Shown here piece by piece: positions 4,196-38,921 of a stretch of 64,000 bases of DNA; the stretch's first letter is position 1; each line of letters begins with the position of its first letter. Location: NCBI GenBank assembly GCA_002840365.1, contig PHAO01000001.1, positions 441,337 to 505,336 on the forward strand, written 5' to 3'. Both the position numbers and the translations under genes were made by a program. Under the pieces are notes generated by a model. The model was not told the DNA's origin. It did not search any database and saw only the letters and a program-made list of their open reading frames with translations. The DNA comes from Candidatus Dojkabacteria bacterium HGW-Dojkabacteria-1 (GTDB taxonomy: Bacteria > Patescibacteriota > Dojkabacteria > SC72).

Positions 4196-4273
4196 GGTGG
4201 CTATAGCTCAATTGGTTAGAGCATCGGTTTGTGGAACCGAGGGTTGTGGGTTCAAGTCCCATTAGCCACCCCA
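4196..4273 (+). tRNA. tRNA-His(GUG): tRNA-His (anticodon GUG) with encoded G-1 and 3' CCA
   Basis: Cloverleaf folded by hand. Acceptor GTGGCTA pairs with TAGCCAC; D arm GCTC/GAGC; anticodon stem TCGGT/ACCGA with loop TTGTGGA; T arm GTGGG-TTCAAGT-CCCAT. An extra 5' G pairs with discriminator C. CCA is present in the genome. Confidence 0.85.
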
Positions 4274-8900: not shown

Positions 8901-8912
8901 AGTATATAGTAA

Positions 8913-10064
8913 TTATAAATTGTTTCCACCAACATTAATAGTATCAGTATAACTCTTCAAATCCAATGGTTTGTAGGTTTTTAAATAATTGCTTATAAAT
9001 TCAAAACATTCAAGGTTATCTTCAACAATATTTATACTATTCATTTTATACTTTATCCCATACCAACTTCTGCTGGAATATACACTTTCAATTATCTTCC
9101 GAAATTCTCTTACTCCGAATGTTTTACAGTATTCAATGAAACCATAGATAGATAAGAGGTTGTTTAACTTAATATCTGGATTATTACTAACTAACTCTCT
9201 GAAAAACAACTCTTTATTATCTATTGAGCAGTTTAATAGATTGTAGTTACTAACAATATCATTCCAAACACTTCTCAATACTGATAATGATATATCACTA
9301 TCACATACCTGCACTAAATTGAAATCCCTTTTGAAAACACTACGAATCTTCTGAATACTGTTATATCTTACTTCAATTCTTAATATCTCAAATTTCTTTT
9401 GGCTGTTTATACTATCAAAGATATTAAATTGTATAGCATTTCCTTTCTCAATAGATCTAGAATCGCTTATCCTTCCCTTTTGTAAATCTTTCTTCTTATC
9501 ATACAGAATTACCTCAAATGAATTAGTATGGAATCTAATACTATCTCCCTTATTTCTATAATCCTTTTCTGTTAAATCATACCTTAAACTTAAATCTGTT
9601 TTAGAAACTTCCTTTGTTATGAAATAAGGTATTACATATTCAGGTAAGGGTATATTCTTTGAAAAATGGACTTTACATACTAATGCTTTTTTCAGTACAT
9701 CCGATGATACCTCTACACTCATCTTTCTTAATGAATCTGATAACTTTTCAACTACATTCTCTATATCTTCATTCCTTAACTCATCAAAATTGTTTAAGAA
9801 CACTATCTTTGGGGCGGAGAATTGAATATACAGATAGATTAATGGTAGAGCATTTACCATTTTTTTTCTTAATGTAAGTTGCGGTTTATATATTCTATTC
9901 TTGTAATCTGCTTGTGTAGGGTTGTTATATGCTTCGATATACCCCCTTGCTCCAAAACGAGAGTAGGGCGGATAGTAGAAATTGTAGGTATTCGGAGTAA
10001 AAGCATTGTGATCTAATATCTTAAAATCCTTTTCGTTTAATCTTAATGTAATTGTATCGATCAT
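8913..10064 (-). CDS. Rep_trans-family (pT181 RepC/D-like) rolling-circle replication initiator
   Basis: 383 aa; motifs 'VILYDKKKD' and 'ILRIEVRY' resemble the 'RIYNKKQE' and 'RVEIELKR' signatures of the pT181 Rep family; N-terminal 'MIDTITLRL' similar to Rep_trans N-termini. Confidence 0.5.
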   Translation of the reverse strand: MIDTITLRLNEKDFKILDHNAFTPNTYNFYYPPYSRFGARGYIEAYNNPTQADYKNRIYKPQLTLRKKMVNALPLIYLYIQFSAPKIVFLNNFDELRNEDIENVVEKLSDSLRKMSVEVSSDVLKKALVCKVHFSKNIPLPEYVIPYFITKEVSKTDLSLRYDLTEKDYRNKGDSIRFHTNSFEVILYDKKKDLQKGRISDSRSIEKGNAIQFNIFDSINSQKKFEILRIEVRYNSIQKIRSVFKRDFNLVQVCDSDISLSVLRSVWNDIVSNYNLLNCSIDNKELFFRELVSNNPDIKLNNLLSIYGFIEYCKTFGVREFRKIIESVYSSRSWYGIKYKMNSINIVEDNLECFEFISNYLKTYKPLDLKSYTDTINVGGNNL

Positions 10065-10068
10065 ATTT

Positions 10069-10341
10069 TTATTTTTCTAATTTACTCACTCTACAACCAC
10101 TGTTTGTACCCTTTTTAACTATTTGTACTCTTTCATTGATTTGCATTAATGTGTATATGTACAATGAAAGAGGATTAGTAAGTTCCTCTTGGATAATTGG
10201 AGTAGGATATTCTTTTATTAGTACATTCCGAACCACTTTTCTCATTACAAAGCACAAAAGATACCAATTTAGGTATCTCTTTGATTTTCCCTGGGAGTGA
10301 AGATATAAAATATCATTCTGCCGCCAGTATCGGAACCTCAA
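10069..10341 (-). CDS. small hypothetical protein inside the island
   Basis: 90-aa ORF co-directional with island genes, 4 nt upstream of rep; no motif recognised; may not be real. Confidence 0.25.
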   Translation of the reverse strand: MRFRYWRQNDILYLHSQGKSKRYLNWYLLCFVMRKVVRNVLIKEYPTPIIQEELTNPLSLYIYTLMQINERVQIVKKGTNSGCRVSKLEK

Positions 10342-10544
10342 AGAGGTTGGGCAGTTTTAATATTTATATAACTAATTATAACACAATTTTTTGGACAACA
10401 AAAACTAGCAACTACATTAACAATTGCTCATGGTTAGGAAATAGGTTTTTGAAGTTATTTAGGAACAGGGTAGAATTTATAGATTTAATTGATTCAATAA
10501 ATTTCTGTTCAAAATACGCCCACTGCTTCACCCCATCTTACCTA

Positions 10545-11909
10545 CTAACTACTCGTAGTCCAAGTAACACCACCATACCTATCATTAATATTAGCTTTCT
10601 TGTTTGAATATATTTCATTCAATATTTTTGGTACTGCAGCTAAATCCTTTGGTATTTGAAATAGATGCTCAACAACCTTCCCTCCCTTTGAATCTCGTAC
10701 CCTTTGATCAATAACTAAATAAGCATTAGTAAAAAAATCATACGGAATATACTCACCACCAGGCAATATATCATCAACAGCTCTAGCATGCATTCTCCAA
10801 TTAGACATTTGTTTAATTGCAGCTACCCAATCACTAGGAGTTCTATTTAAATGCCTCGTGGTATTAAGAGACCTTACAACTGTATTGAAATCTATATTCT
10901 TTCTTTCTGCATCTGTTCTTAAAACCTTAGTATACATATAGTCCTCAACACCTACATTAGGTGTGTAATGAGTAATTGCTCTCATACCTGAGACATAGTT
11001 AGCAACCTTACTCATCAAAGCACCACCAGGAAGTGTAATAAACTTTTTCTTATTCTCTATTTGATATCCTAATTGAGTAGGCCCAACAGGAGTAGTAAGT
11101 AGTGGTTTACCACTTTCTTTTTCCATTATCGCAAACAAATCTTTTGTCCCAACAGCAGTTAATTTTCCTCTTACCAAATTGTCATACATAGTTCTAAAAG
11201 GAGTCTTAACTAAAAGACCCCTTTCATCATTAAAACTAAGAATTGTTTCAGCATCCATTTGATATACAAAATCAGGAGCATATCCCTTTACTATTTGTGC
11301 ATAAAGGAAATTAGAAACATCTCTTAATGCTCTAACCTTACCTTTATTCAAATCACTAGAATCTTTTTGTTGCCTAATTAAAAAAGCTCTGCTTTCTCCC
11401 TCTCTTTCATCAATCTCTGCTATCTCAACAGGAATATCCCAAGCAGTAGCAGCATCAATATCTTCAGTATTAGGTTTGCGAGTAATTATTCTTCTAATAC
11501 TTTCCTCTTTTAAATGCTTCTTAAGTAGAGAATCTATACGGTTATACATCTCTTCTCCAATTCTTGGTGATGCTCCTCCTCCATTGTTACATACTAATAG
11601 AAAATCCAGATCGATATTCGAATCTTTTGCTTGTACAAGTAAGTCTTGAAAAGATTTCTCAAACATTGAAGATGTTAAGTATGATTCATCCTCTTCCCAA
11701 AGGGAAATAACTACGCAACCACGAGGTCTTTTTCTTTCAACTTTGTTCTCATTTAAAGACTGTTCCAATTCTGTTACACCTTCTGAATACATTTCTAAAA
11801 TATTCTCTCTTAACACCTCGTTAGGATTTACTTCTGTAGCCTCTATACTGTTGTTAGGTTCCATATACATATACATATATAGGTTAATAATAGATGATAA
11901 CATATTCAA
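10545..11909 (-). CDS. island cargo protein of unknown family
   Basis: 454-aa ORF, first gene of the minus-strand island block; no Walker, NTase, nuclease or capsid signature recognised; three in-frame ATGs within (ATGTAT)3 at the 5' end. Confidence 0.5.
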   Translation of the reverse strand: MNMLSSIINLYMYMYMEPNNSIEATEVNPNEVLRENILEMYSEGVTELEQSLNENKVERKRPRGCVVISLWEEDESYLTSSMFEKSFQDLLVQAKDSNIDLDFLLVCNNGGGASPRIGEEMYNRIDSLLKKHLKEESIRRIITRKPNTEDIDAATAWDIPVEIAEIDEREGESRAFLIRQQKDSSDLNKGKVRALRDVSNFLYAQIVKGYAPDFVYQMDAETILSFNDERGLLVKTPFRTMYDNLVRGKLTAVGTKDLFAIMEKESGKPLLTTPVGPTQLGYQIENKKKFITLPGGALMSKVANYVSGMRAITHYTPNVGVEDYMYTKVLRTDAERKNIDFNTVVRSLNTTRHLNRTPSDWVAAIKQMSNWRMHARAVDDILPGGEYIPYDFFTNAYLVIDQRVRDSKGGKVVEHLFQIPKDLAAVPKILNEIYSNKKANINDRYGGVTWTTSS

Positions 11910-19651: not shown

Positions 19652-20176
19652 ATGTTTCTTTCAAACAAAACAATACAAGAATATATAGAGAGTGGGAAAA
19701 TATCTGTAATAGGGGATATAGAGTTAGAATCCACTGGACTTGCTGTACACTTAGGAAGTGAATTGTTAATCCCAAAAGATGGACAAACTTTTGATAGTAA
19801 AAATCCAATCGAAATCAAATATGATAGATACAATTTAAACAATTCCCCATACATTCTTAAACCTAATAACTTTGTTTTAGGTATTACAAAACAAAGCATA
19901 AACACAGACAAAGACATATTAACAATGATTGATGGTAGAAGTACATATGCAAGAGCAGGAATGACAATTCATCTTTGTGCAATGATATTAGATGGTGTTC
20001 CCTTTAATATTGAAAATTCTGTATTAGAGATAAAGAATTTGGGTAATTGTAATATATTACTCCACCCAGGAGAAAAGATAGGGACATATCTTTTTGCAAA
20101 ACTTTCATCATCAATTGAAGGGGAGAAAGATAGTAAATATACTAATCAAAATTCTGTAATACCGCCACAATTTTAG
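19652..20176 (+). CDS. dcd: dCTP deaminase
   Basis: 'GRSTYARAGMTIH' matches the Dcd 'GKSSLARLGL' motif; 174 aa; dUTPase-like fold family. Confidence 0.75.
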   Translation: MFLSNKTIQEYIESGKISVIGDIELESTGLAVHLGSELLIPKDGQTFDSKNPIEIKYDRYNLNNSPYILKPNNFVLGITKQSINTDKDILTMIDGRSTYARAGMTIHLCAMILDGVPFNIENSVLEIKNLGNCNILLHPGEKIGTYLFAKLSSSIEGEKDSKYTNQNSVIPPQF

Positions 20177-20559
20177 AGATGATGCTCTTCTTCTGCTAAC
20201 ATTGCTTCTTCTTTCGTTACATGCTCCGTATTTTCTGGATGATTAGAAGGTGCATATATTGTATACAGCTTTAAAGTCTCTGTTTCAGAAACATTAATTA
20301 CATTATGAAGTGAACCAGCAGGAACAATTATTACCATATCTTCATCAACAATATGCTCCTCACCACCAATAATTACTTTGGCCTCTCCTTCTTCTACTCT
20401 AAAAAATTGGTCTACATTGTCATGAACCTCTTCACCAATATCCTCACCTGGTTTAAGAGACATAACTACTAATTGCATATATGTACCTGTAAATAGAACC
20501 TTTCTAAAACTACTATTCTCCTTTGTCCTATCCTCAATATTGTCTACATATCCTTTCAT
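20173..20559 (-). CDS. cupin domain protein
   Basis: 128 aa; cupin motifs with His/Glu residues (EEVHDNVDQFF...IVPAGSLHNV). Confidence 0.6.
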   Translation of the reverse strand: MKGYVDNIEDRTKENSSFRKVLFTGTYMQLVVMSLKPGEDIGEEVHDNVDQFFRVEEGEAKVIIGGEEHIVDEDMVIIVPAGSLHNVINVSETETLKLYTIYAPSNHPENTEHVTKEEAMLAEEEHHL

Positions 20560-20605
20560 ATTTTTTAACTACTAAAATTATCTATATATTTTTAGTATAC
20601 CACTT

Positions 20606-21694
20606 TTATCTTAGTGAATATTTAAGGTCTAAAATCTTTAATACTTTTCTGTTTAAATCCTCCTCTTTGATAACTCCCTCTTTTACAGCCTCTAAGACTG
20701 CTCTGTATGCTTCTGCTTGTTCTTCAGGTTCACCCGTATATATCAAAATATCATTTCCAACTAATACTGCCTTAACTGCTGCTTCTCTTACAGAATACAT
20801 GTCATAAATTGATTTCATCTGCATATCATCTGTAATAATCAAACCTTCAAATCCAAGCTCTTTTCTTAAAAGGGTATCAACAAAATAGCTGGAAACAGTT
20901 GTAGGGTTATCTTTATCTATCTTCGGAAAAAGCATATGACCAGTCATAACAGTATCGGTATATTTGAGAACTTCTTTAAATTGAAAAATATATTCATCAA
21001 GCTCATCAGCTGAAATATCAACACTATCTAATTGTGAGTGAGAATCTAATGTCTCATTACTGTGTCCTGGAAAATGTTTTACAGAAGAAATAATGCCTGC
21101 ACTTTTGTATCCTTTAACCATTGCAACAGCTAAATCAGAAACCTCTTGAGGTGTACCTCTAAACGATCTTGTAAAAAGAAATGACTGCTCATTGGTTACA
21201 TGGTCTAATACAGGAGAAAAATTCATATTAATACCCAATTCCTTTAATTGCTTACCTCTATCCTTTGCAACTTTAAAAGCCTCTTTTTCATTCTCTATGT
21301 CATACTGAGAAATATCATATGTATCTTCAAACCAAATTCTAGCCACTTCTCCTCCCTCTTGATCTACACTAATGAAAAGTGGAATTTTAGAAAGAGCTTG
21401 AAGTGAAGATGTAAGTTTTGTGACCTGTTCTTCACTATCAATATTGTAACCAAGAAGTATTACTCCACCAATATATCTTTCTTTAATCATTTTAGTAATG
21501 TAATAGTCGGGTTCCTTTCCCCAAAATCCAAAGATAAAGAGCTGTCCTACTTTCTCTTCTAATGTCATTTCACTTAGCATTTGTTGTGTGTCTACTCTTT
21601 TACCTGAAAAATATGGTGTAAGAAAACCAATAGCGATAGTACAAAATATTAAAAATACAACCAAGAGCAGAATTTTTGAAATATTCTTTTTCAA
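20606..21694 (-). CDS. nagZ: beta-N-acetylhexosaminidase, GH3 family (NagZ-like), membrane-anchored
   Basis: GH3 N-terminal domain motifs 'VGQLF', 'SVDQEGG' and 'KHFPGHS..TLDSH'; N-terminal TM helix. Confidence 0.7.
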   Translation of the reverse strand: MKKNISKILLLVVFLIFCTIAIGFLTPYFSGKRVDTQQMLSEMTLEEKVGQLFIFGFWGKEPDYYITKMIKERYIGGVILLGYNIDSEEQVTKLTSSLQALSKIPLFISVDQEGGEVARIWFEDTYDISQYDIENEKEAFKVAKDRGKQLKELGINMNFSPVLDHVTNEQSFLFTRSFRGTPQEVSDLAVAMVKGYKSAGIISSVKHFPGHSNETLDSHSQLDSVDISADELDEYIFQFKEVLKYTDTVMTGHMLFPKIDKDNPTTVSSYFVDTLLRKELGFEGLIITDDMQMKSIYDMYSVREAAVKAVLVGNDILIYTGEPEEQAEAYRAVLEAVKEGVIKEEDLNRKVLKILDLKYSLR

Positions 21695-22473
21695 CTCTTT
21701 TTTACAAAAATTTTAGGTAAAAGAATCCCTGTATTATGTATGTACTCGAGATACTTTTCATTACTTCCATACCTTTCCATATCTCTTTTTTCTAACGTTG
21801 GTATTCCTGTTACAAAAAGGAGTAGGTAGGTAATATACATTGGAGAAATAACTGTAAATATTGCCCAATCATTAATGTATGGTAGTACGTATACAAAGAC
21901 TCCTAACCACATTAATATTTCTCCTAAATAGTTAGGGTGTCTGGAATATTTCCAAAGTCCACTCTGTATCCATTTGCCTCTATTCTCTTTCTTACTTTTG
22001 AATATATATTTTTGTATATCTGCACTAGATTCAAGTAATATCCCTAAGATTGCAATTAAGAATCCAATATATGAAAAAGTAGAAATATGTGTGCTCTGTT
22101 CTAAAAGTAGGGCATATGTAGTAGGTAGAAGTATAATAAAGACGGATATTGCTTGTAATATCCAAAATCCAGCAAACTTCAAAGGTTTCTCCCTTATTCC
22201 ATCAAATCTTTCATCCTTACCTGTTTTCAATATTCTTATAAAAAGATATATCGCTAATCTTAAACCCCAAACTACTATTAGAAGTGCTAATAACCACTTG
22301 TAAATGGATATGTATTCTGATGCAAGAGATATGGATGCGATAGAAGCAACAATAAATGTTAAACCATATGAAAGATCCGTTACCTTATCTGTTTTTTGTA
22401 TTACAGCATAAGTAAAGAATATTAACTGTAGAAAAAATATTACTCCAAATACAATTAAAATATTTGTAAGCAT
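21691..22473 (-). CDS. membrane methyltransferase of the ICMT/PEMT/DUF1295 family
   Basis: Multi-TM; conserved 'RHPNYLGE' motif near the C-terminus. Confidence 0.55.
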   Translation of the reverse strand: MLTNILIVFGVIFFLQLIFFTYAVIQKTDKVTDLSYGLTFIVASIASISLASEYISIYKWLLALLIVVWGLRLAIYLFIRILKTGKDERFDGIREKPLKFAGFWILQAISVFIILLPTTYALLLEQSTHISTFSYIGFLIAILGILLESSADIQKYIFKSKKENRGKWIQSGLWKYSRHPNYLGEILMWLGVFVYVLPYINDWAIFTVISPMYITYLLLFVTGIPTLEKRDMERYGSNEKYLEYIHNTGILLPKIFVKKS

Positions 22474-22931: not shown

Positions 22932-24530
22932 TTATATCTCGAACAGTTTCCTAATTTCTCTTACTTTGGCTGTTGCTAATTCTAAAATTGAAATAGCATC
23001 GACTAATACATTTCCATTGTACTCATCTTCCTCTTGTAGTTTGGTAACATGCTCATCAAAATGTTGCTGAATATGCTCTGTGAGTCTTAATTCCCTCTCC
23101 TTTATACTCTTTAACTTCTCATCAGAAGGCTCTAGTATTAATGGGATTAATTCTCTTACTAAATCTAAGAATTCACTTTGAATAGAACTCAACTGATCGA
23201 TACAGACATCTTTTTTCGCAACACCTAAAGTATGCATTCTTGTAAATACCTCTGACAGATCCTGTCCTAAATCGCCAATCTGTTCAATATTGTTAGAAAT
23301 CTTTACTAACAAGACACTACTTTTAGCATCCATAGCTGACAATTTCTTTTTTGCTAACCTTAGAATTGCTTTCGTAATTTCATCATCAAGATAGTCATTT
23401 AGAGCTTCTAATTTTTGAATCTTCATTAAACTCTGCTTACCAGAGTTGTAATATACAGCAATAGCTTCTTCATATATATGAATTGTATTTTCAATAGAGT
23501 AAATCATTTCCCTTTTAATATCTTGTATTTGTTTTTTAGGAGGATCTTCATCTCCATTAAGATACTTAGGTTTGAAAAGAACCTCTTCTTCATCTCCAGG
23601 AACTAACTTAAGTATTAATTTTTCAAACGGAGTTAACAAAAGAAGGAATATCGAGGAATTTATTACATTAAACATTACATGAGCAAGAGCTGCCTGTTGT
23701 GCTGCACCATTTACGAGAGAGGTAATGAATGTCGTGAAGTAGGGAAGCAGTAGCATGAAAAGAGAAGTACCAAAAAAATTGAAAAGTACGTTAGCAATAC
23801 CTGCTCTCTTTGAATGAAGAGAAAGCCTTGATGAAGCGATAAAGGCAGTAACACTTGAGCCTAGGTTCGCACCAAGTACCATAGGAATTGCAACTTCAAT
23901 CGGAATCAATCCTTCCATAGCTAATATGACTACAATACCAGAAGTCACAGAACTCGATTGTATAATTGCAGTAAAGAAAGCACTAACAAAATACGCTATT
24001 AAGGGATTTGAAAGGTTTGCGAAAATCTCAACAATCTCATTATTATCCCTTAATGGAGCAATAGTTGATGAAAGTAATCCTAAACAGAAAAGAATAAAAC
24101 CAAGAAAAAATATTGGTTTACTAATTAAACGGAACTTGCTTCCCAAAAGTTTCATCAATGTACCAACGATAATGAGAATAGGGGCTAAAGCCGTTGAACT
24201 AAGAAGGGCAAGTTGAGCAGTAACAGTAGTACCTATCTTCGAACCAAATATTATTGCTAAGCTATTTCGAAATGAGAGAACACCAGTATTAACAAGAACA
24301 ACAGTTATAACTGAAACAGCAGAACTAGATTGTATTACTGCAGTAGAGATTGCTCCTGCAAGTAATCCTGCTATCCTGTTTTTTGATATCTTGCCAATAA
24401 AATCTCTAAACTTATCTGAAGCTAGAGATTGTAATTCACTACTTAGATTATCAATTGCATACAAAAAAAGAATCAATGCAGAAACAATTCCAAGTGCAAT
24501 TTTTAAATATATTGGATCAATATCAAACAT
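22932..24530 (-). CDS. Na+/phosphate symporter (NptA-like) with C-terminal PhoU-like domains
   Basis: 532 aa; duplicated 'QSSSA/QSSSV' Na/Pi-cotransporter signature; cytoplasmic helical C-terminus. Confidence 0.7.
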   Translation of the reverse strand: MFDIDPIYLKIALGIVSALILFLYAIDNLSSELQSLASDKFRDFIGKISKNRIAGLLAGAISTAVIQSSSAVSVITVVLVNTGVLSFRNSLAIIFGSKIGTTVTAQLALLSSTALAPILIIVGTLMKLLGSKFRLISKPIFFLGFILFCLGLLSSTIAPLRDNNEIVEIFANLSNPLIAYFVSAFFTAIIQSSSVTSGIVVILAMEGLIPIEVAIPMVLGANLGSSVTAFIASSRLSLHSKRAGIANVLFNFFGTSLFMLLLPYFTTFITSLVNGAAQQAALAHVMFNVINSSIFLLLLTPFEKLILKLVPGDEEEVLFKPKYLNGDEDPPKKQIQDIKREMIYSIENTIHIYEEAIAVYYNSGKQSLMKIQKLEALNDYLDDEITKAILRLAKKKLSAMDAKSSVLLVKISNNIEQIGDLGQDLSEVFTRMHTLGVAKKDVCIDQLSSIQSEFLDLVRELIPLILEPSDEKLKSIKERELRLTEHIQQHFDEHVTKLQEEDEYNGNVLVDAISILELATAKVREIRKLFEI

Positions 24531-24634
24531 ACTCTATTTAATCTATCACATCTTTTAATATCCTCCAACTATATATACTTGTACAAATTTAAAAAGGAAT
24601 ATATATTTAGATATATAAACTAATTACCCTTGTC

Positions 24635-25396
24635 ATGGATAAATACAAAAATCTCAGGGTATATAACATTGTAATGGGTATCTTCCATTTTATCCAAAGT
24701 GTTTTAATGTTTTTCTTAAGTAATGATTTTTCACTACCAGTAAACACAAGCTATTTAAAATTCGATGTTCAATCATTAACTCTGCAACCACTTTTAGAGA
24801 ATGTCGGAGATTTAAGAGTAGGATACTTAGTAGCTCTTTTCTTACTACTTTCTTCAATTTCTCACTTTGTAATTTCTCTTCCAAAGGTATATGAGTGGTA
24901 TATTGCGAATTTAAAGAAAGGTATTAACTATGCGAGATGGTATGAATATGCAATAAGTTCCTCAGTTATGATTGTCGTAATAGCAATGCTTGTTGGAGTA
25001 TACGATCTTAGTTCCCTTCTTCTCATCTTCTTTATGAATATGATGATGATTCTCTTTGGCCTAATGATGGAACTACATAATCAAGCAACAAAGAGAACAG
25101 ATTGGACTTCATACATATTTGGTTGTATTGCTGGAATTCTTCCATGGGTAGTAATAGCATTGTATCTTTTCGAATCTGGAGATGGAGAAAACAAAGCTCC
25201 TGATTTCGTATATTGGATATTCTTTAGTATATTCCTATTCTTTAATACCTTTGCCGTTAATATGGTACTACAATACAAGAAAGTCGGTAAATGGAGTGAC
25301 TATACATACGGAGAAAAAGTATATATTTTACTTAGTTTAGTTGCAAAATCTCTACTTGCATGGCAAGTATTTGCAGGAACATTAAGACCAGTATAA
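24635..25396 (+). CDS. heliorhodopsin (7-TM retinal protein)
   Basis: 253 aa. Strong resemblance to heliorhodopsin 48C12: 'FHFIQ...NDF(S/A)LP', 'RW(Y/V)EY(A/S)(I/L)SSSVMIV', 'FGCIAGI(L/V)PW' and TM7 'LSLVAKSLLAWQ(V/I)F(A/S)GTL' with Lys238. Glu104 is at the counter-ion position. Confidence 0.8.
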   Translation: MDKYKNLRVYNIVMGIFHFIQSVLMFFLSNDFSLPVNTSYLKFDVQSLTLQPLLENVGDLRVGYLVALFLLLSSISHFVISLPKVYEWYIANLKKGINYARWYEYAISSSVMIVVIAMLVGVYDLSSLLLIFFMNMMMILFGLMMELHNQATKRTDWTSYIFGCIAGILPWVVIALYLFESGDGENKAPDFVYWIFFSIFLFFNTFAVNMVLQYKKVGKWSDYTYGEKVYILLSLVAKSLLAWQVFAGTLRPV

Positions 25397-25399
25397 GGA

Positions 25400-25615
25400 T
25401 TACTCTGCTGGGATAGGTCCACCATGATCACCACTGATGACAATACCATCAGGTCCAAAAGCGCCCATTCTTACCATCTCCATTAATTCTCCGATGGTAA
25501 GTGCGTCAGGGTCAAAATCATCAGGATTATATCCAAGCGATAAAAGAATATCTCTCAAACTTGAAGATGGTTCTTCTCTTGGACTTTCTTCTGTGTAGTT
25601 TATTTCATTTTCCAT
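25400..25615 (-). CDS. small acidic hypothetical protein
   Basis: 71-aa ORF. Confidence 0.3.
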   Translation of the reverse strand: MENEINYTEESPREEPSSSLRDILLSLGYNPDDFDPDALTIGELMEMVRMGAFGPDGIVISGDHGGPIPAE

Positions 25616-25636
25616 AGTTAGATTATACCATTTTTT

Positions 25637-26050
25637 CTAAAAAAGGTCTTCACAACAACTTTCTCTGATTCTTTCTAGATGTTCACGGTAAAGGAAAATA
25701 GCAGGTATTCCACTTTCTTCAATTCTTTGTCTTTGTCTCTGTTTTCTTAATCTTGTCTTCCTATCTGAGTTCCCATTACCACCATTCTCATAAAGAAGAG
25801 TTATCTCAACAATCTTACCTGTTCTTGTTTTCGGATTAAAAACAAAGAAATCTGGGACACAATCTAAATCCTCAATGTAGGGCTCTCTGTATACAATCAT
25901 ACCCCTGTCAATTAATAGTTCTAGAAATCTACCCTCGTAGTCATTCATTCCATATTCAGGAAATTCTACAGGAGAATCTACATAAAGATTGGGATACAAA
26001 TCTGATATATATCTGGAGAGTTCTTCGTATGAATATTCTTGTTCTAGCAT
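25637..26050 (-). CDS. hypothetical protein
   Basis: 137 aa; Arg/Gln-rich segment; possible PD-(D/E)xK-like core (DLDCVPDFFVF...EIT), unverified. Confidence 0.4.
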   Translation of the reverse strand: MLEQEYSYEELSRYISDLYPNLYVDSPVEFPEYGMNDYEGRFLELLIDRGMIVYREPYIEDLDCVPDFFVFNPKTRTGKIVEITLLYENGGNGNSDRKTRLRKQRQRQRIEESGIPAIFLYREHLERIRESCCEDLF

Positions 26051-26313
26051 GTAGGTAAAATATGTAGCAGGTATATCACCATAGTAAATGCAAAAGGGAT
26101 ATCTTACAAGACCGATAGTGTTGATTAATAGGGCGGAAAGAAATATAATTGCACATTAATACCAATGTACCACAAATACTTGATATTAACCTAGTACAAC
26201 TATATAGGTTGTATTGTTCTTTAAAAAGTGAATAGAATCGAATTGATGGACGATTAATGTTTTTTCGTGAATATCAATCGTCCATCAAAATTCAAACCAG
26301 AAAGGAGTTCGCC

Positions 26314-27693
26314 ATGTTGTTCATACTAGCGGGGCTAGCAACGATAGGCGGAATCCTTTTCGTTGCGTTGCCAGAAGTTGTAAAACAAGATATCCTCTTC
26401 AAGATTGTTGAGGCTCTATCTAAAGGAGCGCACACTGCTTCCGATATTGTTGCAAAAGCCGGAGAAGGAATTGTGAAATTCCTACTTCGAGGAACCATAG
26501 TTGGTACAGTAGCCGTAGTAGGCTTCTCTGTGCTAGACATGGTTGCTGATCATAGATTGCAAATGCCAACGTCACAGGTCCAGATATTGAAAGATTACTG
26601 GCACTTGATTGACAAGGCAGCACAAGAGAGCGACACCGACCCATATATGATTGCAGCCGTTTGGCGAGTGGAGAACTCTCTGCTACCATCTGGCCCAAAC
26701 AATCAGCAGGGAATCGGTGGATTCTACTCTGCGGTACAAGCTGGGGAGAGATTTCCTGTTGGCCAACTCTCAGATGGAGAAATCCTCAGTCAGTTGACAC
26801 GCATTGGAAATATACTCCATGGTAAGTGCCCAGGTGTAGATATTAGCTATGCATCCCAAAACAACCATTCTGAAGATCACATGTGGAGCAGAGCTCTTTG
26901 CTTTGCAACCTACAATGGATCTCAAGGAACACTTGTAAGGGGTGTGTATCAATCAAATGGCCAAGTCTTTAACAACCTCCCTGGACATCCTCAAACAAAC
27001 GGCCTAAACATTTGTTTGACAGATGGTTGTACCAGGAGAGGACCTATGCAACATGATGGCTATGAAACAAGCTACAGAAAGATCAAAGCCCATGTTGTAA
27101 GTCATCCTCAGATGACAGGAGGTAAAGTAACAGCACCAATAGAAGCAGTAATACGTATAACCGACAAGGTCTCTGGAGAATTAGAGCGAATGGCAATGGC
27201 TTTAGACGCCATAACCATAGCTTGGAAAGCTCAGAACATTGTCGAAGAGGCATATGCTTCAGTTGTTAAACCCCCACCAGAGGGTAAACTAGCATGGCCT
27301 GGTCCAAGCAATACCTGGATTCAGTTCGCCTTTGGAAGTCCACCGGGATACTCCTGGTCGAGTTTTCATAACGGCGTAGACATAGATGCTCCAGGGTTTA
27401 CACCCTTCACAGTGACTTCCGCTTCAACAGGGAAAGTCATATATGCCCAACGCATGGATTCATGCAATGTTGGCGTAGTGAAGGTTCAATGGACCCCAGA
27501 GTTAGTAATAAACTATGTTCATTTGGATCCAGATTCTTTAATGGTAGGGAAAGGTGACAAGGTAGAAGTAGGGCAAATTATCGGAACCGTTTTTAACGGC
27601 AAAACCACCTGCTCGGATGGACCACACTTGCACTTCATGGTCGTTCGAAATGGTGTACCAATCAATCCACAACAATTTCTAGTAAAGGAGTAA
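26314..27693 (+). CDS. membrane-anchored bifunctional cell-wall hydrolase: lytic-transglycosylase-like domain plus C-terminal M23 (LytM) peptidase
   Basis: M23 motifs 'FHNGVDI' (HxxxD) and 'HLHFMV' (HxH). Middle 'IAAVWRVENS' resembles the SLT catalytic Glu-Ser region. RBS AAAGGAG before ATG 26314; the ORF track starts at 26257. GC-richer than the genome by eye. Confidence 0.6.
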   Translation: MLFILAGLATIGGILFVALPEVVKQDILFKIVEALSKGAHTASDIVAKAGEGIVKFLLRGTIVGTVAVVGFSVLDMVADHRLQMPTSQVQILKDYWHLIDKAAQESDTDPYMIAAVWRVENSLLPSGPNNQQGIGGFYSAVQAGERFPVGQLSDGEILSQLTRIGNILHGKCPGVDISYASQNNHSEDHMWSRALCFATYNGSQGTLVRGVYQSNGQVFNNLPGHPQTNGLNICLTDGCTRRGPMQHDGYETSYRKIKAHVVSHPQMTGGKVTAPIEAVIRITDKVSGELERMAMALDAITIAWKAQNIVEEAYASVVKPPPEGKLAWPGPSNTWIQFAFGSPPGYSWSSFHNGVDIDAPGFTPFTVTSASTGKVIYAQRMDSCNVGVVKVQWTPELVINYVHLDPDSLMVGKGDKVEVGQIIGTVFNGKTTCSDGPHLHFMVVRNGVPINPQQFLVKE

Positions 27694-27696
27694 TTG

Positions 27697-28212
27697 ATGG
27701 AAGCAATACCTGTACCACGCGAGCTTATCGTCCCCCTTACCGCCGTTTTGCTTGCCACGGTGACATACCTCCTCAAGGATGTCAATAAGGGGAAGGGACT
27801 TGGCACACAAATCTGGAACATTGCTCAAGGCATGTTCGGGGTTCTGGCGGCATTCTGGCTGGTTCTCAATGTCATGTTGAGATTAACCGGAATTGCCTGG
27901 TCCCGCTTCTTAACAAACCAGTATGTTTCGGCTTTTTTAGCGGAACTCACAATCGAGACAGAAACTTTTCCCGATTGGGTTGTAATACTGGTCGCAGTAG
28001 GTCTGTTCTACCTCAGCATCAAGGTTGCAGCTGGAAGTGGAACAAGCGTCTGGGGAAAGATAGGGAACATCTTGAAATACTATGCCTTGTTTTTGATCTT
28101 ACTCGGCATCGTAAGCAGCATTCTGTTCGCACTCGTGAACACTGTTGCCAAGAGTTTCCTCAGCAATCCATACGTCATCTCTCTGTTGAAAGAATTTGGC
28201 TTCGTGCCATAG
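27697..28212 (+). CDS. integral membrane protein (4 TM), translationally coupled to the M23 hydrolase gene
   Basis: TAA-ttg-ATG junction with the upstream gene; hydrophobic; GC-richer. Confidence 0.5.
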   Translation: MEAIPVPRELIVPLTAVLLATVTYLLKDVNKGKGLGTQIWNIAQGMFGVLAAFWLVLNVMLRLTGIAWSRFLTNQYVSAFLAELTIETETFPDWVVILVAVGLFYLSIKVAAGSGTSVWGKIGNILKYYALFLILLGIVSSILFALVNTVAKSFLSNPYVISLLKEFGFVP

Positions 28213-28340
28213 ACGGAGAGAAAGAGGAGAGGGCCGTAGGCTTTCACAGATACGGCCCTTTGCCTCTCCCATTCGATTCTATTCACAGATTTAAAGAGAT
28301 TTCATAAATATGAAATTTCTTTCAGATTTAACAGTTAAAA

Positions 28341-30701
28341 ATGGATCCTAAAGAAGAAATACAAAAAATTAAAGAATACGTAGGAGGATTACTTACACCA
28401 CAAGAAATTGTGGTAAGTGAGTACAAAGAAGCTGAGGATTTTCTAGAAGAAAATCTTCCTTCCAAAGAACCTACAGCAGAAGAATATCTTGCTGCATATC
28501 AAAAGATTGAAGCACTAAGAAACTCAAAACATCCTCATAGACAGCAGGAGCATGCTGATTTAGCAATGCTCATTGAAAGGGGTTTACCTTTTTCCTCTAA
28601 AGGTTTCAATCTAATTGCTTTTCAACTCTATTCCGAAGTAATGAATAGAGTACCTAGAGAAGAATCACTAATTGATGGATCTATCTTTATCGATTTTGAT
28701 CAATGGCTCTATGGGTATCCATCATTCAGATTGTGGAGAATGGTAAAACAAGAGAATCAATCACCCCAAGAAAGAGAAGCGGTAGAAAGAATGATATGGA
28801 GATTGCTAACATATTCCACAGAACTTCATGCCCAACTTGATGAAGAGTATCAGGAGAAGAAAACAATTGAGAAAGAGCTCCAAGACAAAAAAGCAAAAGA
28901 GAAAAAACCAATTAATATAGTACCAAAGGTTATTACTAAAAATATTAAGAAAGTGGCTGAAAAGATCTCAGAAGGAAACCCAGACGCCCTTGAGGATTTA
29001 GGGAATACTGTAGAGAGATTCAACAGAACAAGAACATATTTCGAAACAATGATAAAAATATTTAGGAATCCAGAGAATCTCTTTGTTAATTTTGATCAAA
29101 AGATAGGGTTTTGGATGAGTGAAGAAGGAGAAGTAGTCCTTTCTCACCTAATTACTTCAAACAGAGAAGATTTCAGAAACATTTACTACTCAATACTAGA
29201 AAGACTTATCTCTGAAGCAGAATTAAAAAGAGATACTGAAATGCGTGGTAGAGTAGGTACAAGACACGCACTACGCCTTAAAAGGATTTATCCCTTTTCA
29301 AAAGATTTTACAGAAGTTGAATATTGGAGAGGGATTAATTTGCCAAGCAAAAGGAAAGCTAAAGCAGAATCAGAAGTAGTATTACCAAGAAAAAATGATG
29401 GAGATGATAGGAATGGATTTCAAATCCTAGGTTCCTTGTTAAGGTCAAATGATATTAGAGATGCAAGAATTTACAAAAAAACTATGCTTGCCTTTATGGA
29501 ATACATAGAGAAAAACAGAACTGCAATTGCAGATTATGAAATTACAAAAAATTTCTTTAAAACTCAGTATGCATTTGATTTAATCTTTAACCTTCCTGAA
29601 GAGGAAAAAGAAATTGAAGAAGAGGATAGCTCTTTCAATTTTGTTCTTCGAAGATACCTTTGGTTAAAATACGGACCTGAATATACAGAGGAAGAGCCTT
29701 CAGCATTTGAAATAAAACTTTGGAAACTTCAAAAGAATATATTGCTCAAGGGAGTAAGAATTTTTGAAGATTTGTTTAGAGCACAAGATCAATTAGGACA
29801 AGATGGCTATGAAATACATCGTGACTTCTATCAAGAAGCTAGAAATGATTTAGAAGAACAGTATACAGAAAGTGGTTGGCATTTAATAATGTATACAACA
29901 AGAAGATTTAGTGACGTTAGAGATATTTTTTCGAAATCATTTGAAAAATTTAGAATACATTTTTCTCCCCAAGATGAAAAACTCTTCTATCTTTCGGTAC
30001 TACTTGGAACTTTGGATTTTGCACTAACAATGAAACACAGAGAGAATCTAAAGAAAGTTGGAGCAAGCACATTAAGATACTTACATGGAACAAAGGTACC
30101 AACAGCATTTGAAGAGGTATCAGAGAAAGCAGAACAAGAATTAGGCATATGGAGATTTAAGAAAGATACCAAAGATCCAAGCAATCCAAGACTTCAATTT
30201 GATAATAATTTAATAAATTCTCTTCGTAATCTTTCAGTATTCTGGGGTAGGGGGTATGGTGTAACTGTCTTTATCGAACAATCAGGCATAAGGGTAAAAA
30301 ATCCATTACATACAATGGGAGAGGAAAAAGAAGTGAAAAAGGGAGACCAGATTATTAAGGAGAGACCAAATAAAGGAGGAAGGGATGAAGTATTAATACC
30401 ATGGGAAATCATTTCAAAAGCAACTCCTCAATTTGATTACATTAACTGGACCGACTCTGTACTCAGACTTGTTGGAAAATATAGGGCAACAATGGGAAGG
30501 AAAGATTTAGATTGGATATCTGATTTAGCAGCCAAAGGTCCTGCAGTTATTCGTTTTGAAGCTGCAGGTAGCGAGAGAAACTATGAATTGCCTCCTTTAC
30601 CAAATGCCAGAGAAGTTGCGAAGATATTAAAGGAAATCGCAAAACAGATGGTTGTATTAGAGACTCCTCATCCAAAGGATATTCTAAAGAAGTTAGAATA
30701 A
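28341..30701 (+). CDS. large (786 aa) cytoplasmic protein of unknown function
   Basis: Long uninterrupted ORF, charged/helical composition; no TM, nucleotide-binding or catalytic motif recognised. Confidence 0.6.
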   Translation: MDPKEEIQKIKEYVGGLLTPQEIVVSEYKEAEDFLEENLPSKEPTAEEYLAAYQKIEALRNSKHPHRQQEHADLAMLIERGLPFSSKGFNLIAFQLYSEVMNRVPREESLIDGSIFIDFDQWLYGYPSFRLWRMVKQENQSPQEREAVERMIWRLLTYSTELHAQLDEEYQEKKTIEKELQDKKAKEKKPINIVPKVITKNIKKVAEKISEGNPDALEDLGNTVERFNRTRTYFETMIKIFRNPENLFVNFDQKIGFWMSEEGEVVLSHLITSNREDFRNIYYSILERLISEAELKRDTEMRGRVGTRHALRLKRIYPFSKDFTEVEYWRGINLPSKRKAKAESEVVLPRKNDGDDRNGFQILGSLLRSNDIRDARIYKKTMLAFMEYIEKNRTAIADYEITKNFFKTQYAFDLIFNLPEEEKEIEEEDSSFNFVLRRYLWLKYGPEYTEEEPSAFEIKLWKLQKNILLKGVRIFEDLFRAQDQLGQDGYEIHRDFYQEARNDLEEQYTESGWHLIMYTTRRFSDVRDIFSKSFEKFRIHFSPQDEKLFYLSVLLGTLDFALTMKHRENLKKVGASTLRYLHGTKVPTAFEEVSEKAEQELGIWRFKKDTKDPSNPRLQFDNNLINSLRNLSVFWGRGYGVTVFIEQSGIRVKNPLHTMGEEKEVKKGDQIIKERPNKGGRDEVLIPWEIISKATPQFDYINWTDSVLRLVGKYRATMGRKDLDWISDLAAKGPAVIRFEAAGSERNYELPPLPNAREVAKILKEIAKQMVVLETPHPKDILKKLE

Positions 30702-30717
30702 GGTATAATTTCTCAAC

Positions 30718-31224
30718 ATGAAGGAGAAAGTCATTGTCTATGACAAGATGCAATCAGGTTACACATATTTTAAAACAGAACCTGTAGGAAAAAATTTCCA
30801 TGAAGAATTTAAACCCGAATTAACTCCCAAGCAAATGCTTGAATTAGGAGTATTTGGTGGTAAATACATGACAGATTGTCAAAATGAATTTCCTAAAGAG
30901 TGGTTTGTAAAAGCAAAACTTTCCCCTCTTAAAAAGGATATCTCTCTTAATTACTTTAAAATAGATGCAAGCTTACCTCTTTCATACTGGCAAGAGAAAG
31001 GTTGGATATATGAAGATGACCCCAGAGGGTGGTTTCAGTGGTACTGTAGATATTACATGGGAAGAAGAATTCCTGTTGAAGATAAAAGACAGATAAAAAG
31101 GTGGAAAGCTATCAAGAGACATGTACAAGCTGTAAGAAAAAATTGCAAAGAGAGAGATTTAGATTGTAGAAAAAAACAGAGACAAGCTCTCTTACACTGG
31201 GCATATGATAGTAGAAAAATTTAA
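30718..31224 (+). CDS. conserved hypothetical protein (Trp-rich 'GWFQWYCRYYMGRR' motif)
   Basis: 168 aa; basic C-terminus; family not identified. Confidence 0.45.
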   Translation: MKEKVIVYDKMQSGYTYFKTEPVGKNFHEEFKPELTPKQMLELGVFGGKYMTDCQNEFPKEWFVKAKLSPLKKDISLNYFKIDASLPLSYWQEKGWIYEDDPRGWFQWYCRYYMGRRIPVEDKRQIKRWKAIKRHVQAVRKNCKERDLDCRKKQRQALLHWAYDSRKI

Positions 31225-35987: not shown

Positions 35988-36596
35988 ATGAAATTGCCAA
36001 AGCTAAATAAAGTAGTAATATACCTTAGTCTTTCAGATGTATTCACATGGGGACCATACACCATAATCTCAATGCTTACAGGTTTGTATCTTGCATCTAA
36101 ACTAGGTGAGAATGTAGTACAGTTCGTTGGAATAGGTACTTCTATATATTTCTTTACTAGAGCACTTTTCCAAATGCCAGTCGGTATTCTTACAGATAAA
36201 TACAAACATGATAAAGATGAAATATTAATTCTCTTTGTCGGTATATTACTAATGGGTTTTCCTTTCCTTTTGTATCCATACATACAGAATCAATATCAGT
36301 ATTTCTTTTTACAATTCCTTTTTGGTTTGGGAGTATCACTAAATTTAACTAATTGGAGAAAACTTTTTGCTCTTAATGTAGATACCGGTAGGGAAGGAAG
36401 ACAGTACAGTATGTATGAAGTAATAATGAGTGTATCAACTGCATTAATATGTATCTTAGGTGGATATATCGCGAATATGGGAGATATTTACTTTGATACT
36501 GTAATGTCAGTTGCAGGTGTAATCATAATGTTGGGAGGAATTTGGTCCATTATGATATATAGATACGAAGGTAGAAAGAGTAGGAAGAAGAAATAG
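35988..36596 (+). CDS. 6-TM MFS-like half-transporter (possible truncated MFS gene)
   Basis: 202 aa; six hydrophobic helices; motif-A-like loop 'GILTDKYKHDKDE' after TM2; half the usual MFS length, with no room upstream for the other half. Confidence 0.4.
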   Translation: MKLPKLNKVVIYLSLSDVFTWGPYTIISMLTGLYLASKLGENVVQFVGIGTSIYFFTRALFQMPVGILTDKYKHDKDEILILFVGILLMGFPFLLYPYIQNQYQYFFLQFLFGLGVSLNLTNWRKLFALNVDTGREGRQYSMYEVIMSVSTALICILGGYIANMGDIYFDTVMSVAGVIIMLGGIWSIMIYRYEGRKSRKKK

Positions 36597-36622
36597 AAAT
36601 ATTTAAATTGGTATAACATGGT

Positions 36623-37015
36623 ATGGAGAAGAAAATTTTAATATTAATAACAATAGTTTTACCCTTAGGAATTCTTACAGTATTTTCATTTAAAGACTTT
36701 TTAATTAAAGATTCTCCCATTGAAAACAAAACACCAGAGAGTAAAATTGTAACGAAAGGTAATTTTATACTTGAATATACCTACAAAGGAGAAAATATAT
36801 GGGAATATAGTGTAACAGGACAATTACCTAATCCATGCTATCAAGCATCTACAGATGTAATAGTTGCAGAAAGCTATCCTGAACAAGTATTCGTGACAGT
36901 AACTGTAGCACCACCAGAAGATGATGTAATGTGTGCTCAAGTTATTTCTGAGTATGAATACTCTGGTGAATTTAGTGCAAGCAAGGAGGCTACTGTAGCT
37001 CTTCAGGTGAAATAA
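36623..37015 (+). CDS. small secreted protein
   Basis: 130 aa, signal peptide. Confidence 0.4.
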   Translation: MEKKILILITIVLPLGILTVFSFKDFLIKDSPIENKTPESKIVTKGNFILEYTYKGENIWEYSVTGQLPNPCYQASTDVIVAESYPEQVFVTVTVAPPEDDVMCAQVISEYEYSGEFSASKEATVALQVK

Positions 37016-37676
37016 CAATCCAACCAGATATTAATCTTCTGTCTCCATTTCTTTCTAAACATGTGGAGATAATTAAATCTGCTCCTCCTGGTGTTCTATT
37101 GTCTTCAAGTACTCTAGCATCTTTGTACCAAATAGCTTGAAGCACTGTATCTCCAATCTTTATCTGTGTACCATCTAACTGTCCATTAGAGTAAAGTAGG
37201 TGAAGTAAATCTCCAAAAAGATAGTGTTTGTTACCTAGAGACAGTCCATTATGAGTATGTAATTGATATGTATTATCCATTACAAATATAGGACCACCTA
37301 AGACAATATTTCTGTTTTGATCAAGTTGTCTTTGCCATTTATAATCACCTAAAAGTAGTTCATTTAACTCATTTACAGTATCTTCTGAATACTCTCCTAA
37401 ATATGTGTATTTAAGGGATATTTCTTTTCCTTCCCATCTACTTGGTATATCTCTGTTTAATACTGAGAAAGTATAAAGGTAAGTATTACCATCTACAAAT
37501 GCCAATGATTTACCCAAAGGATTCTCCTGTTCAACAAAAGAAGTAGAATCAGCAACAGCATATATTTCAGTGTTAATAACTTCTTCTTTTGTATTAGGAA
37601 TAAAAACAAAAATTGTGTAGATAGCGGTACTAATTACAAGTACCGCTACCAATATATTCAATATCTTAAACTTCAT
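36990..37676 (-). CDS. sortase-family transpeptidase
   Basis: N-terminal TM anchor; His (NKHYLFGD), Cys in 'LIISTCLE' (compare sortase TLxTC) and Arg (RRLISGW); 228 aa; overlaps the stop of the upstream surface-protein gene. Confidence 0.55.
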   Translation of the reverse strand: MKFKILNILVAVLVISTAIYTIFVFIPNTKEEVINTEIYAVADSTSFVEQENPLGKSLAFVDGNTYLYTFSVLNRDIPSRWEGKEISLKYTYLGEYSEDTVNELNELLLGDYKWQRQLDQNRNIVLGGPIFVMDNTYQLHTHNGLSLGNKHYLFGDLLHLLYSNGQLDGTQIKIGDTVLQAIWYKDARVLEDNRTPGGADLIISTCLERNGDRRLISGWIVISPEELQ

Positions 37677-38785
37677 TAAACTCTATTTATGTATTCTTTA
37701 CCTACATATATTAATGATATACCTGTTACAAGCATTAGTAATGATTGTATTAGGTAAACAGTAGATCTATCCCCTGCAGCTGTAGCAGCAAGTACTACTG
37801 TTGTAGTGCCTTTTACTTCTGTAGTTACACCTTGTACATCTCCATCATCATCTTCATCTTCACCATCCCCTGTTGGTAAACAGAGTGGGTCATCAGCATA
37901 TGTAGCTGTTTCCCAAGGACAAAAATCTCTTTCCTCGTAATCCTTCTCTATTTCAGTACTACATACGATTTCCGAATTTTTAGAATCAAGATTTGATACA
38001 ACTCTCTCTCTTACAAACCTGCTCTCATCCGATGGGTCCACAGTCCAATCGGACCATTCACCAATATATTCTGTTGTTTTTACGCAATAACATGGGGTAT
38101 TGTTTGCAGCCTTAGTATCATCCATAACCCATTGCTGTGTTGTATTGTTCCACCAGTATAGTATAACTGTTTGTGGTTTTTCATCGTATAAAGTTTCAAA
38201 AAGATACGGATCTGTAAATCTTGTTGCTTCGGTATGATTAAATCCAAACAACTTATCCAAACTATTTATTCCCCCTGGAACTACTTTATATCCTAATTGG
38301 ATAGGGAAATATGTATCAGACTTGTCTTTATGAAATACCCTCCAAACCCTTACCATATTGATATGGTCGTAACACATTGAGGTTAAAACAAGATCATGCT
38401 TCTCTTCTTCAACAATAGGCTTATCAATTAATAAAAATGAGGCATGAGAAAGATCTGCTATTTGCCCACCTGGATTAACAGCAGTACTTTCAACCAAGAC
38501 CTTATCCTTAGGAGGATTCACATCATAATATGTAACGACGGTAGATGCTTTATAACATACTTTTGAAACCAATTTCCCTGTAGGTGCAGTATATTCATAA
38601 GTTTTTGATGTTAAATCATCTATTTTAATCCAACCACCGCCTGTATTTGGACATGTTTCTTGACCCTGTCCTTGACCATTATTAGCCTCCACACCCTTAG
38701 GAGAAAGAGTTAAAAACAAACCTAATGTTAATGAAAAAACTAAAAGAAAACTCGCAAAGATTCTTAATTTACTTTGCATAACCAA
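37676..38785 (-). CDS. secreted cell-surface protein, paralog of 13067-13711, with C-terminal TM anchor
   Basis: Signal peptide; N-terminal 'TCPNTGGGWIKIDDL...CYKAST...VNPGGQIADLSHASF' domain aligns with the 13067 protein; acidic tract, then TM and 'KEYINRV' tail. Confidence 0.65.
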   Translation of the reverse strand: MVMQSKLRIFASFLLVFSLTLGLFLTLSPKGVEANNGQGQGQETCPNTGGGWIKIDDLTSKTYEYTAPTGKLVSKVCYKASTVVTYYDVNPPKDKVLVESTAVNPGGQIADLSHASFLLIDKPIVEEEKHDLVLTSMCYDHINMVRVWRVFHKDKSDTYFPIQLGYKVVPGGINSLDKLFGFNHTEATRFTDPYLFETLYDEKPQTVILYWWNNTTQQWVMDDTKAANNTPCYCVKTTEYIGEWSDWTVDPSDESRFVRERVVSNLDSKNSEIVCSTEIEKDYEERDFCPWETATYADDPLCLPTGDGEDEDDDGDVQGVTTEVKGTTTVVLAATAAGDRSTVYLIQSLLMLVTGISLIYVGKEYINRV

Positions 38786-38921
38786 TTAATGATAATTTAT
38801 ATATCATCAATCGGTTTCGCCACTCGCTATCCACTCTTTAGGCGACCATATTACCAAGAGAGGGTCACTGCATTTGATACATATATTTTACTACTCTAAC
38901 TATTGAAAATCAATATAGTAA

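Follow-up and report, generated by a model that had tools for sequence, protein, structure and literature searches.

The DNA analysed here is a window of 64,000 nucleotides from the genome of Candidatus Dojkabacteria bacterium HGW-Dojkabacteria-1 (assembly GCA_002840365.1, contig PHAO01000001.1, forward-strand positions 441,337 to 505,336), and the element of interest is an open reading frame (ORF) of its forward strand for which an earlier note, based on the letters of the DNA, had proposed the identity of a heliorhodopsin (HeR) gene. The gene stands alone, with a divergent gene upstream and a convergent one downstream; the coordinates of all features discussed in this connection are collected in Table 1. 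The frame is real: it opens with ATG, runs through 253 codons with no internal stop and closes with TAA, and the motifs that had been quoted from it lie where they were placed, RWYEY at residue 101, FGCIAGILPW at residue 162 and LSLVAKSLLAWQVFAGTL at residue 233. The opposite strand across the gene is broken by many stops, and the antisense ORFs found there are TTG-started fragments of 52-65 amino acids (aa) without support. With a GC content of 0.322, compared to 0.332 for the window, the gene is native in composition.

Membership of the product in the heliorhodopsin family is far beyond chance. Residues 7-250 matched the whole of the Pfam profile PF18761, which the earlier note had suggested as a check (profile positions 1-242 of 242; E 1.3e-102; 342.8 bits against a cut-off of 26.7), and the NCBIfam equivalog NF038020, 'heliorhodopsin HeR', was also matched over its full length (1-244 of 244; 352.6 bits against a cut-off of 100). 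In a sequence search of the PDB the top matches were TaHeR (6is6, E 5.5e-80) and 48C12 (6su3, E 1.2e-63), and no PDB sequences besides heliorhodopsins were matched at E ≤ 0.01. The type-1 rhodopsin model, PF01036 Bac_rhodopsin, gave no match at E ≤ 0.1. The ORF encodes a canonical TaHeR-like heliorhodopsin, native to Candidatus Dojkabacteria HGW-Dojkabacteria-1, and we consider it almost certain that its product is a functional member of the family.

Table 1. Features of the heliorhodopsin gene and its surroundings, in positions of the 64,000-nucleotide window
Feature	Coordinates	Strand	Basis
Heliorhodopsin coding sequence, monocistronic	24635..25396	+	ORF calls, PF18761, NF038020, PDB 6is6, AlphaFold2, Foldseek
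H18 codon (48C12 H23), His-His proton-acceptor cluster	24686..24688	+	Alignments; invariant, n=50; role from PMC9726877
Beta-hairpin between helices A and B, predicted outer face, residues 33-61	24731..24817	+	DSSP E33-44, E49-61
H77 codon (48C12 H80)	24863..24865	+	Alignments; invariant, n=50; role from PMC9726877
E104 codon, Schiff-base counter-ion (48C12 E107, TaHeR E108)	24944..24946	+	Alignments; invariant, n=50
Lateral-fenestration/putative carotenoid-site stretch: Y160, C164, G167 (helix E), F203, N204, A207 (helix F)	25112..25255	+	Mapping to 48C12
K238 codon (AAA), retinal Schiff-base Lys (48C12 K241, TaHeR K238), motif S234-L-V-A-K238	25346..25348	+	Alignments; invariant, n=50
Na+/Pi cotransporter-PhoU fusion, 532 aa, divergent, context only	22932..24530	-	PF02690 E 2.9e-48, PF01895
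Intergenic region of 104 bp between the heliorhodopsin and Na/Pi genes, presumed heliorhodopsin promoter region	24531..24634	.	Sequence
Lineage-specific block of ~5.3 kb between the heliorhodopsin gene and a 168-aa gene, not part of the heliorhodopsin gene	25400..30701	.	Synteny with related locus L004

Residues of functional importance were mapped to 48C12 through a HMMER alignment, and their conservation was judged from 50 aligned relatives (68-92% identity). The lysine which had been claimed to form the Schiff base, K238, aligns to K241 of 48C12 and is therefore the helix-7 lysine at the expected position, and the claimed counter-ion, E104, aligns to E107. S234 is the equivalent of S237 in 48C12, so that the helix-7 lysine lies in an SxxxK motif, by which heliorhodopsins are told apart from type-1 rhodopsins with their DxxxK (PMC9166423). 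The two hydrogen-bond chains of 48C12, described together with the roles of their residues in PMC9726877, are complete in this protein (N11, Q21, S73, Y89, R101, S108, E146, E227 and W243), and all of these residues, as well as K238, S234, E104, H18 and H77, are invariant in the 50 relatives. Among the further equivalences to 48C12 given in the earlier note, those of the two histidines stood (H18 to H23 and H77 to H80) and that of a glutamine did not: Q213 aligns to Q216 of 48C12, three positions away from the residue intended, and the counterpart of 48C12 Q213 is M210, a methionine in TaHeR as well. The residues of the fenestration stretch correspond, in the order of Table 1, to F162, C166, G169, F206, N207 and A210 of 48C12, and the set is the same as that of TaHeR. 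G167, F203, N204 and A207 are invariant in the relatives and C164 is nearly so; Y160 (Y164 in TaHeR) belongs to neither of these groups. The fenestration, or carotenoid-site, motif was defined in a preprint (10.1101/2025.11.27.691015) and reported there for 91% of HeRs.

The predicted structure is in agreement with this assignment. A model built with AlphaFold2 on 50 homologues (predicted local distance difference test score 84; predicted template modelling score 0.83) contains seven long helices, at residues 2-28, 62-94, 99-120, 125-151, 157-180, 190-214 and 224-250, as many as the transmembrane helices claimed before. A long beta-hairpin between helices A and B, such as is predicted here, is a characteristic feature of heliorhodopsins. 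When the model was compared by Foldseek with solved structures, it was superimposed on TaHeR (6is6) with a template modelling (TM) score of 0.89, a root-mean-square deviation of 2.3 A and 52% identity in the structural alignment, and on the 48C12 entries with scores of 0.84-0.88, whereas the best type-1 rhodopsins reached scores of only 0.53-0.63 at 9-17% identity; the protein groups with the solved heliorhodopsins and not with the type-1 family. Lysine and arginine residues of the loops number 13 on the side of the N-terminus and of loops B-C, D-E and F-G and 4 on the opposite side, and this positive-inside count predicts an inverted topology, with a cytoplasmic N-terminus. That predicted topology, the SxxxK motif, the lack of a PF01036 match and the low structural scores together rule out a type-1 microbial rhodopsin.

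A protein identical to ours is public at NCBI as 'hypothetical protein CVU76_02455' of the same bacterium, hence the gain in annotation is from 'hypothetical protein' to heliorhodopsin. Identical copies occur in other assemblies, with the same neighbours, and proteins at least 92% identical in several separate assemblies. At least 7,984 proteins match the HeR at E ≤ 1e-20, and the named relatives of 68-98% identity are from WS6 or Dojkabacteria, several of them already annotated 'heliorhodopsin HeR'. Among GTDB contigs, taken as one genome per species, 550 stretches encode relatives; our comparisons of related loci concern the best 80 of these 550, which come from Patescibacteria, Actinomycetota, Chloroflexota and Thermoplasmatota. 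In a previous screen of 1,326 genomes of the candidate phyla radiation (CPR), covering freshwater lakes and GTDB representatives, HeRs were found in Saccharimonadia (80), Dojkabacteria (7) and other classes, and SLVAK was the common helix-7 motif (PMC9166423; Chiriac et al. 2022). The idea of scavenged retinal is likewise already published, and neither the family, nor its occurrence in Dojkabacteria, nor the motif is new, because that study reported them.

A separate problem is posed by seven related loci (L009, L012, L016, L017, L022, L032 and L035) which are titled 'uncultured Gammaproteobacteria bacterium' and carry HeRs 65-70% identical to the one described here. HeRs have been reported to be restricted to monoderms, with Patescibacteria among the phyla that bear them. 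Since they are reported absent from diderms, the titles are probably taxonomic mislabels of Patescibacteria bins.

The origin of the genome is the unusual point of the case. The HGW-Dojkabacteria-1 genome, which is complete, curated, closed and smaller than 800 kbp, was obtained in the Horonobe underground laboratory by filtering borehole groundwater from 140-250 m, in a study which does not mention rhodopsin (PMC5520028; Hernsdorf et al. 2017). In a multi-year study of the same site Dojkabacteria stayed a characteristic CPR group, and rhodopsins are again unmentioned (PMC11657941). Many related loci bear titles that suggest groundwater (GW2011, NC_groundwater, SO_..._GW, CG08), anaerobic reactors (ADurb, AnMBR), buried sediment (CSSed165cm) or the Zodletone spring, the habitat being read in each case from the title. 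In the paper library searched, no text that discusses HeRs from aphotic aquifers was found. A tiny-genome host from dark groundwater makes this HeR a modest lead rather than a discovery.

How such a cell would obtain the chromophore had been raised as a question by the earlier note, which saw no retinal-biosynthesis genes in the window. Pfam scans, comprising our own and precomputed annotations, covered every window ORF of at least 100 aa not shadowed by a longer overlapping one, and bore this out: no domain of Blh/beta-carotene dioxygenase, CrtB phytoene synthase, CrtI phytoene desaturase or polyprenyl synthase was detected in the 64 kb. The lone trace was a sub-threshold Lycopene_cycl match (19 bits against 23.4), confined to the Rossmann part of a generic FAD protein. 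The organism is very probably unable to make retinal. According to PMC9296517, the host of TaHeR has no retinal pathway and TaHeR takes external retinal through a lateral opening, as cited there, and CPR carriers of rhodopsin have no blh. We would regard the question of the chromophore source as already answered in print for these close analogues.

The gene is maintained under strong purifying selection, because the ratio of nonsynonymous to synonymous substitution rates (dN/dS) is about 0.06: comparison with the L003 orthologue, which is 92% identical, gave 0.057 at a dS of 0.67, and the other orthologue pairs for which it could be computed gave 0.04-0.14. A dark habitat and the lack of a retinal pathway in the window are what would be expected of a decaying relic without current function; however, the frame is intact, the functional residues are invariant and proteins at least 92% identical persist in several assemblies, and in view of such selection we reject the relic hypothesis as hardly credible.

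The neighbours are those named in the earlier note, namely the divergent Na/Pi cotransporter-PhoU gene upstream and, downstream, small ORFs of 71 and 137 aa, of which the first is convergent and has its stop 3 bp past that of the HeR gene. The intergenic region upstream holds one sigma-70-like match (24580-24607, +), and the number of promoter-like sites is not above the shuffled expectation. A terminator scan around the HeR gene found none, and Rfam models at a permissive threshold gave sub-threshold noise only between 22300 and 26400.

The Na/Pi cotransporter-PhoU protein is the sole partner candidate suggested by position, and one could imagine that the HeR regulates it, with light-modulated phosphate uptake as the outcome. 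The two genes have the 104-bp intergenic region in common and are still paired in L003 and L004; in L046 the distance from the HeR gene to a Na/Pi gene is 2 kb, and modulation of a membrane transporter by a HeR has a precedent (PMC11109279). Nevertheless, a Na/Pi gene was found within 10 kb in only 3 of the 80 related loci, two of which are close relatives with synteny by descent, and this frequency is about that which we estimate for chance in genomes of ~1 Mb. As the association does not exceed that estimate, we find such regulation improbable.

Na/Pi-PhoU (3 of the 80 loci), DUF1295 (4) and cupin genes (7) were also considered as recurrent neighbours; most of these loci are from close relatives, and the enrichment is not convincing. 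DUF1295 is a membrane protein related to steroid 5-alpha-reductase and ICMT. In L043 it is encoded directly upstream of the HeR gene and on the same strand (9182-9949 / 9980-10750 region), in L059 it lies with a small cupin gene at most 1.5 kb from the HeR gene (3111-5268), and in the window (20173-22473) and in L004 the two genes are 2-4.5 kb away. With so few cases we would not speak of an association.

In L004, whose HeR is 85% identical to ours, the gene order is DCD, cupin, DUF1295, Na/Pi, HeR, a 168-aa gene, IscS, NifU and MnmA. Because the 168-aa gene directly follows the HeR gene there, the block which separates the two in the window is a lineage-specific insertion. It contains the ORFs of 71 and 137 aa on the reverse strand and, on the forward strand, an M23 peptidase of 478 aa, a membrane-like ORF of 172 aa and an ORF of 786 aa; the GC content of the M23 gene is 0.45 and that of the 172-aa ORF 0.48, compared to 0.33 for the window. 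The M23 domain was the sole recognisable match when the block and nearby unknown ORFs were searched against PHROGs and Pfam. The block has the look of an insertion gained by horizontal transfer.

The 168-aa protein itself (30718-31224, +) is basic, belongs to no Pfam or PHROG family and bears the motifs GVFGGKYMTDC and DPRGWFQWYCRYYMGRR. It is highly conserved, the best 80 of its 383 relatives from metagenome loci being 65-89% identical. Its gene is also found 0.7 kb from the HeR gene in L035. As a HeR partner it was rejected: the 80 metagenome loci with this gene, 33 of which span 8 kb or more, are all without a HeR gene.

The partner of the HeR cannot be read from the locus, because the gene is transcribed alone. 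In this respect it is not exceptional, as ~61% of HeR genes are transcribed without a neighbouring gene (PMC11109279), and none of the ten recurrent partner classes defined in the same work flanks the gene here.

The best explanation of the data as a whole, a canonical heliorhodopsin together with the mechanism set out below, appears to us probable. The most likely role would be that of a slow-cycling photosensor which uses scavenged retinal and acts on a partner protein. Towards the mechanism taken separately, that of a light-regulated modulator of an unlinked partner, we lean only a little. External retinal is proposed because the organism very probably cannot make its own, and the apoprotein would take it up through the fenestration formed by Y160, C164, G167, F203, N204 and A207. 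All-trans retinal would be held as a protonated Schiff base on K238, with E104 as the single counter-ion, at a site beside the hydrogen-bond networks of H77, H18, Q21 and W243 and of N11, Y89, E227, R101 and E146. Green light would isomerise the retinal (13 natural HeRs absorb at 530-556 nm; PMC7807009), and the Schiff-base proton would move to E104 and the His cluster and stay inside the protein, which would not pump ions. A long-lived intermediate might then alter the cytoplasmic face, where basic loops could modulate a partner protein. Basic loop residues in this HeR are K84, K94, K95 and R101, and K215, K216, K219 and K228. Regulation through cytoplasmic loops was shown for an ABC (ATP-binding cassette) transporter, for which basic residues of intracellular loops 1 and 3 of OcHeR are the partner-binding determinants (PMC11109279), and it has also been demonstrated for glutamine synthetase and photolyase.

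Several observations weigh against this explanation. No neighbour is conserved across the 80 related loci, and no partner has been identified among them. All-against-all clustering of the ORFs of 81 loci recovered ABC ATPase/permease genes in 15 (in 6 of them within two genes of the HeR gene) and response regulators in 9, but neither class adjoins the HeR gene here, the ABC-transporter genes of the window being 18-27 kb away. Pfam scans of the window revealed no histidine kinase, response regulator, glutamine synthetase or photolyase. The search for retinal genes covered 64 kb, that is ~9% of a genome of ~734 kb. Retinal binding, the absorption spectrum, the photocycle and the lack of transport are presumed by homology, at 52-60% identity to TaHeR. 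Finally, the source habitat, groundwater at 140-250 m, receives no light, and a role of pure photosensor is therefore hard to reconcile with purifying selection of such strength.

This last point leads to the possibility that the role is mainly light-independent. The protein might sense or sequester host-derived retinoids or carotenoids by means of its fenestration, or be a constitutive membrane partner or regulator whose photochemistry has no importance in the aquifer; extended to the TaHeR-like clade, such a function without need of sunlight might consist in chemosensing of a partner organism, a host or neighbour whose retinoids or xanthophylls would be detected or captured through the outward-facing fenestration, or in constitutive regulation of a membrane protein. 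Persistence of Dojkabacteria for years in the groundwater from which the genome was recovered, the aquifers, sediment cores and anaerobic reactors to which titles of related loci point, strong purifying selection in a genome of less than 800 kb and the lack of light-response genes nearby are all in favour of this. On the other hand, the residues of photochemistry, K238, E104, H18, H77, S234 and W243, are invariant, as selection for a light function predicts, no light-independent function of a HeR was found in the literature surveyed, and the habitat of recovery is not a proof of lifelong darkness. We judge this rather unlikely, for the protein and for the clade alike. If true, it would call for a change in the prevailing ecological proposal, made for sunlit waters, that HeRs serve as switches to counter photo-oxidative stress (PMC8612252). 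A conserved monocistronic HeR in a lightless habitat offers a sharp test of the light requirement for HeR function.

The same fenestration could instead accommodate an external xanthophyll as an antenna, making the protein a two-chromophore light harvester, as the 2025 preprint proposed for HeRs in general. The aromatic-C-G / F-N-A motif is complete in our protein, and in a cell with no outer membrane such an outward-facing site would be accessible. However, the proposal came from docking and sequence statistics, not from measured binding, and what the harvested energy would be used for is unstated. Such an antenna has, in our view, a small chance of being present; it would be compatible with the photosensor mechanism favoured above and not exclusive of it.

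A further departure from that mechanism would be proton transport of the kind ascribed to V2HeR3. Some HeRs do transport protons (PMC9448325), and the fold and Schiff-base region are common to them and to this protein. Yet its nearest relatives are TaHeR and 48C12, not the viral HeRs, and its fenestration motif is complete, whereas the subfamily of mostly viral HeRs to which the transporters belong is reported to have none of it. We consider proton transport very improbable, and the photosensor role remains the one we prefer.

Elsewhere in the window a few features deserve mention. A c-di-GMP-II-GAG riboswitch aptamer (38801-38884, -) was matched over the full model length by Rfam (50.7 bits against a gathering threshold of 40), and it lies directly upstream of a 369-aa ORF (37676-38785, -) and a 228-aa ORF with no Pfam family. 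A tRNA-His gene (4197-4273, +) and a gene for a large serine recombinase (4252-5718, -) overlap, the former with its 3' end and the latter with its end as well; after the recombinase gene come, again on the reverse strand, a 1061-aa MmeI/Eco57I-like type IIG restriction-modification enzyme and two unknown ORFs of 383 and 454 aa. The region 4197-11909 has a strongly negative GC skew and looks like an element integrated at tRNA-His; no direct repeat of the 3' end of the tRNA gene, of 13 nucleotides or more, was found to mark a far boundary. At 35988-37015 (+), consecutive ORFs of 202 and 130 aa, the first matching the N-terminal half of MFS_1 only (10-180 of 347), perhaps represent one MFS transporter gene that is split or carries a frameshift. 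Between 12000 and 14420 the GC content rises to 0.39, and this part encodes a putative Pro-rich ORF of 214 aa, with a sub-threshold Extensin-like match, and an overlapping, TTG-started ORF of 253 aa, also putative.

Among known systems, the best solved match is TaHeR of the Thermoplasmatales archaeon SG8-52-1 (PDB 6IS6, 7U55 and 7CLJ). It has in common with the Dojkabacteria protein the counter-ion Glu, the Lys of the SxxxK motif, which is K238 in both numberings, the Tyr of the fenestration and the Met at the position of 48C12 Q213. It differs in being archaeal, in ~40-48% of its residues and in an E-F loop 4 residues shorter, and TaHeR is experimentally characterised. The founding member of the family, 48C12 (PDB 6SU3, 6SU4, 6UH3 and 9LJJ), is ~45% identical; its network of N16, H23, Q26, S76, H80, Y92, R104, E107, S111, E149, E230, S237, K241 and W246 is conserved, whereas its F162 and Q213 are replaced by Y160 and M210. 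The HeRs of other Dojkabacteria (WS6) and CPR bacteria have the SLVAK motif in common with this copy, which is set apart by its label of hypothetical protein and its source, a closed genome from deep groundwater.

HeRs have a described cellular role in three operon-linked cases, and a genome of less than 800 kb provides an unusually small space in which to search for a partner. Those three, AbHeR with glutamine synthetase, TfHeR with photolyase and OcHeR with the OmrDE ABC transporter, belong to the same family and are co-transcribed with their partners, unlike the HeR described here; nonetheless, the basic residues by which OcHeR binds its partner, in intracellular loops 1 and 3, have counterparts in this protein.

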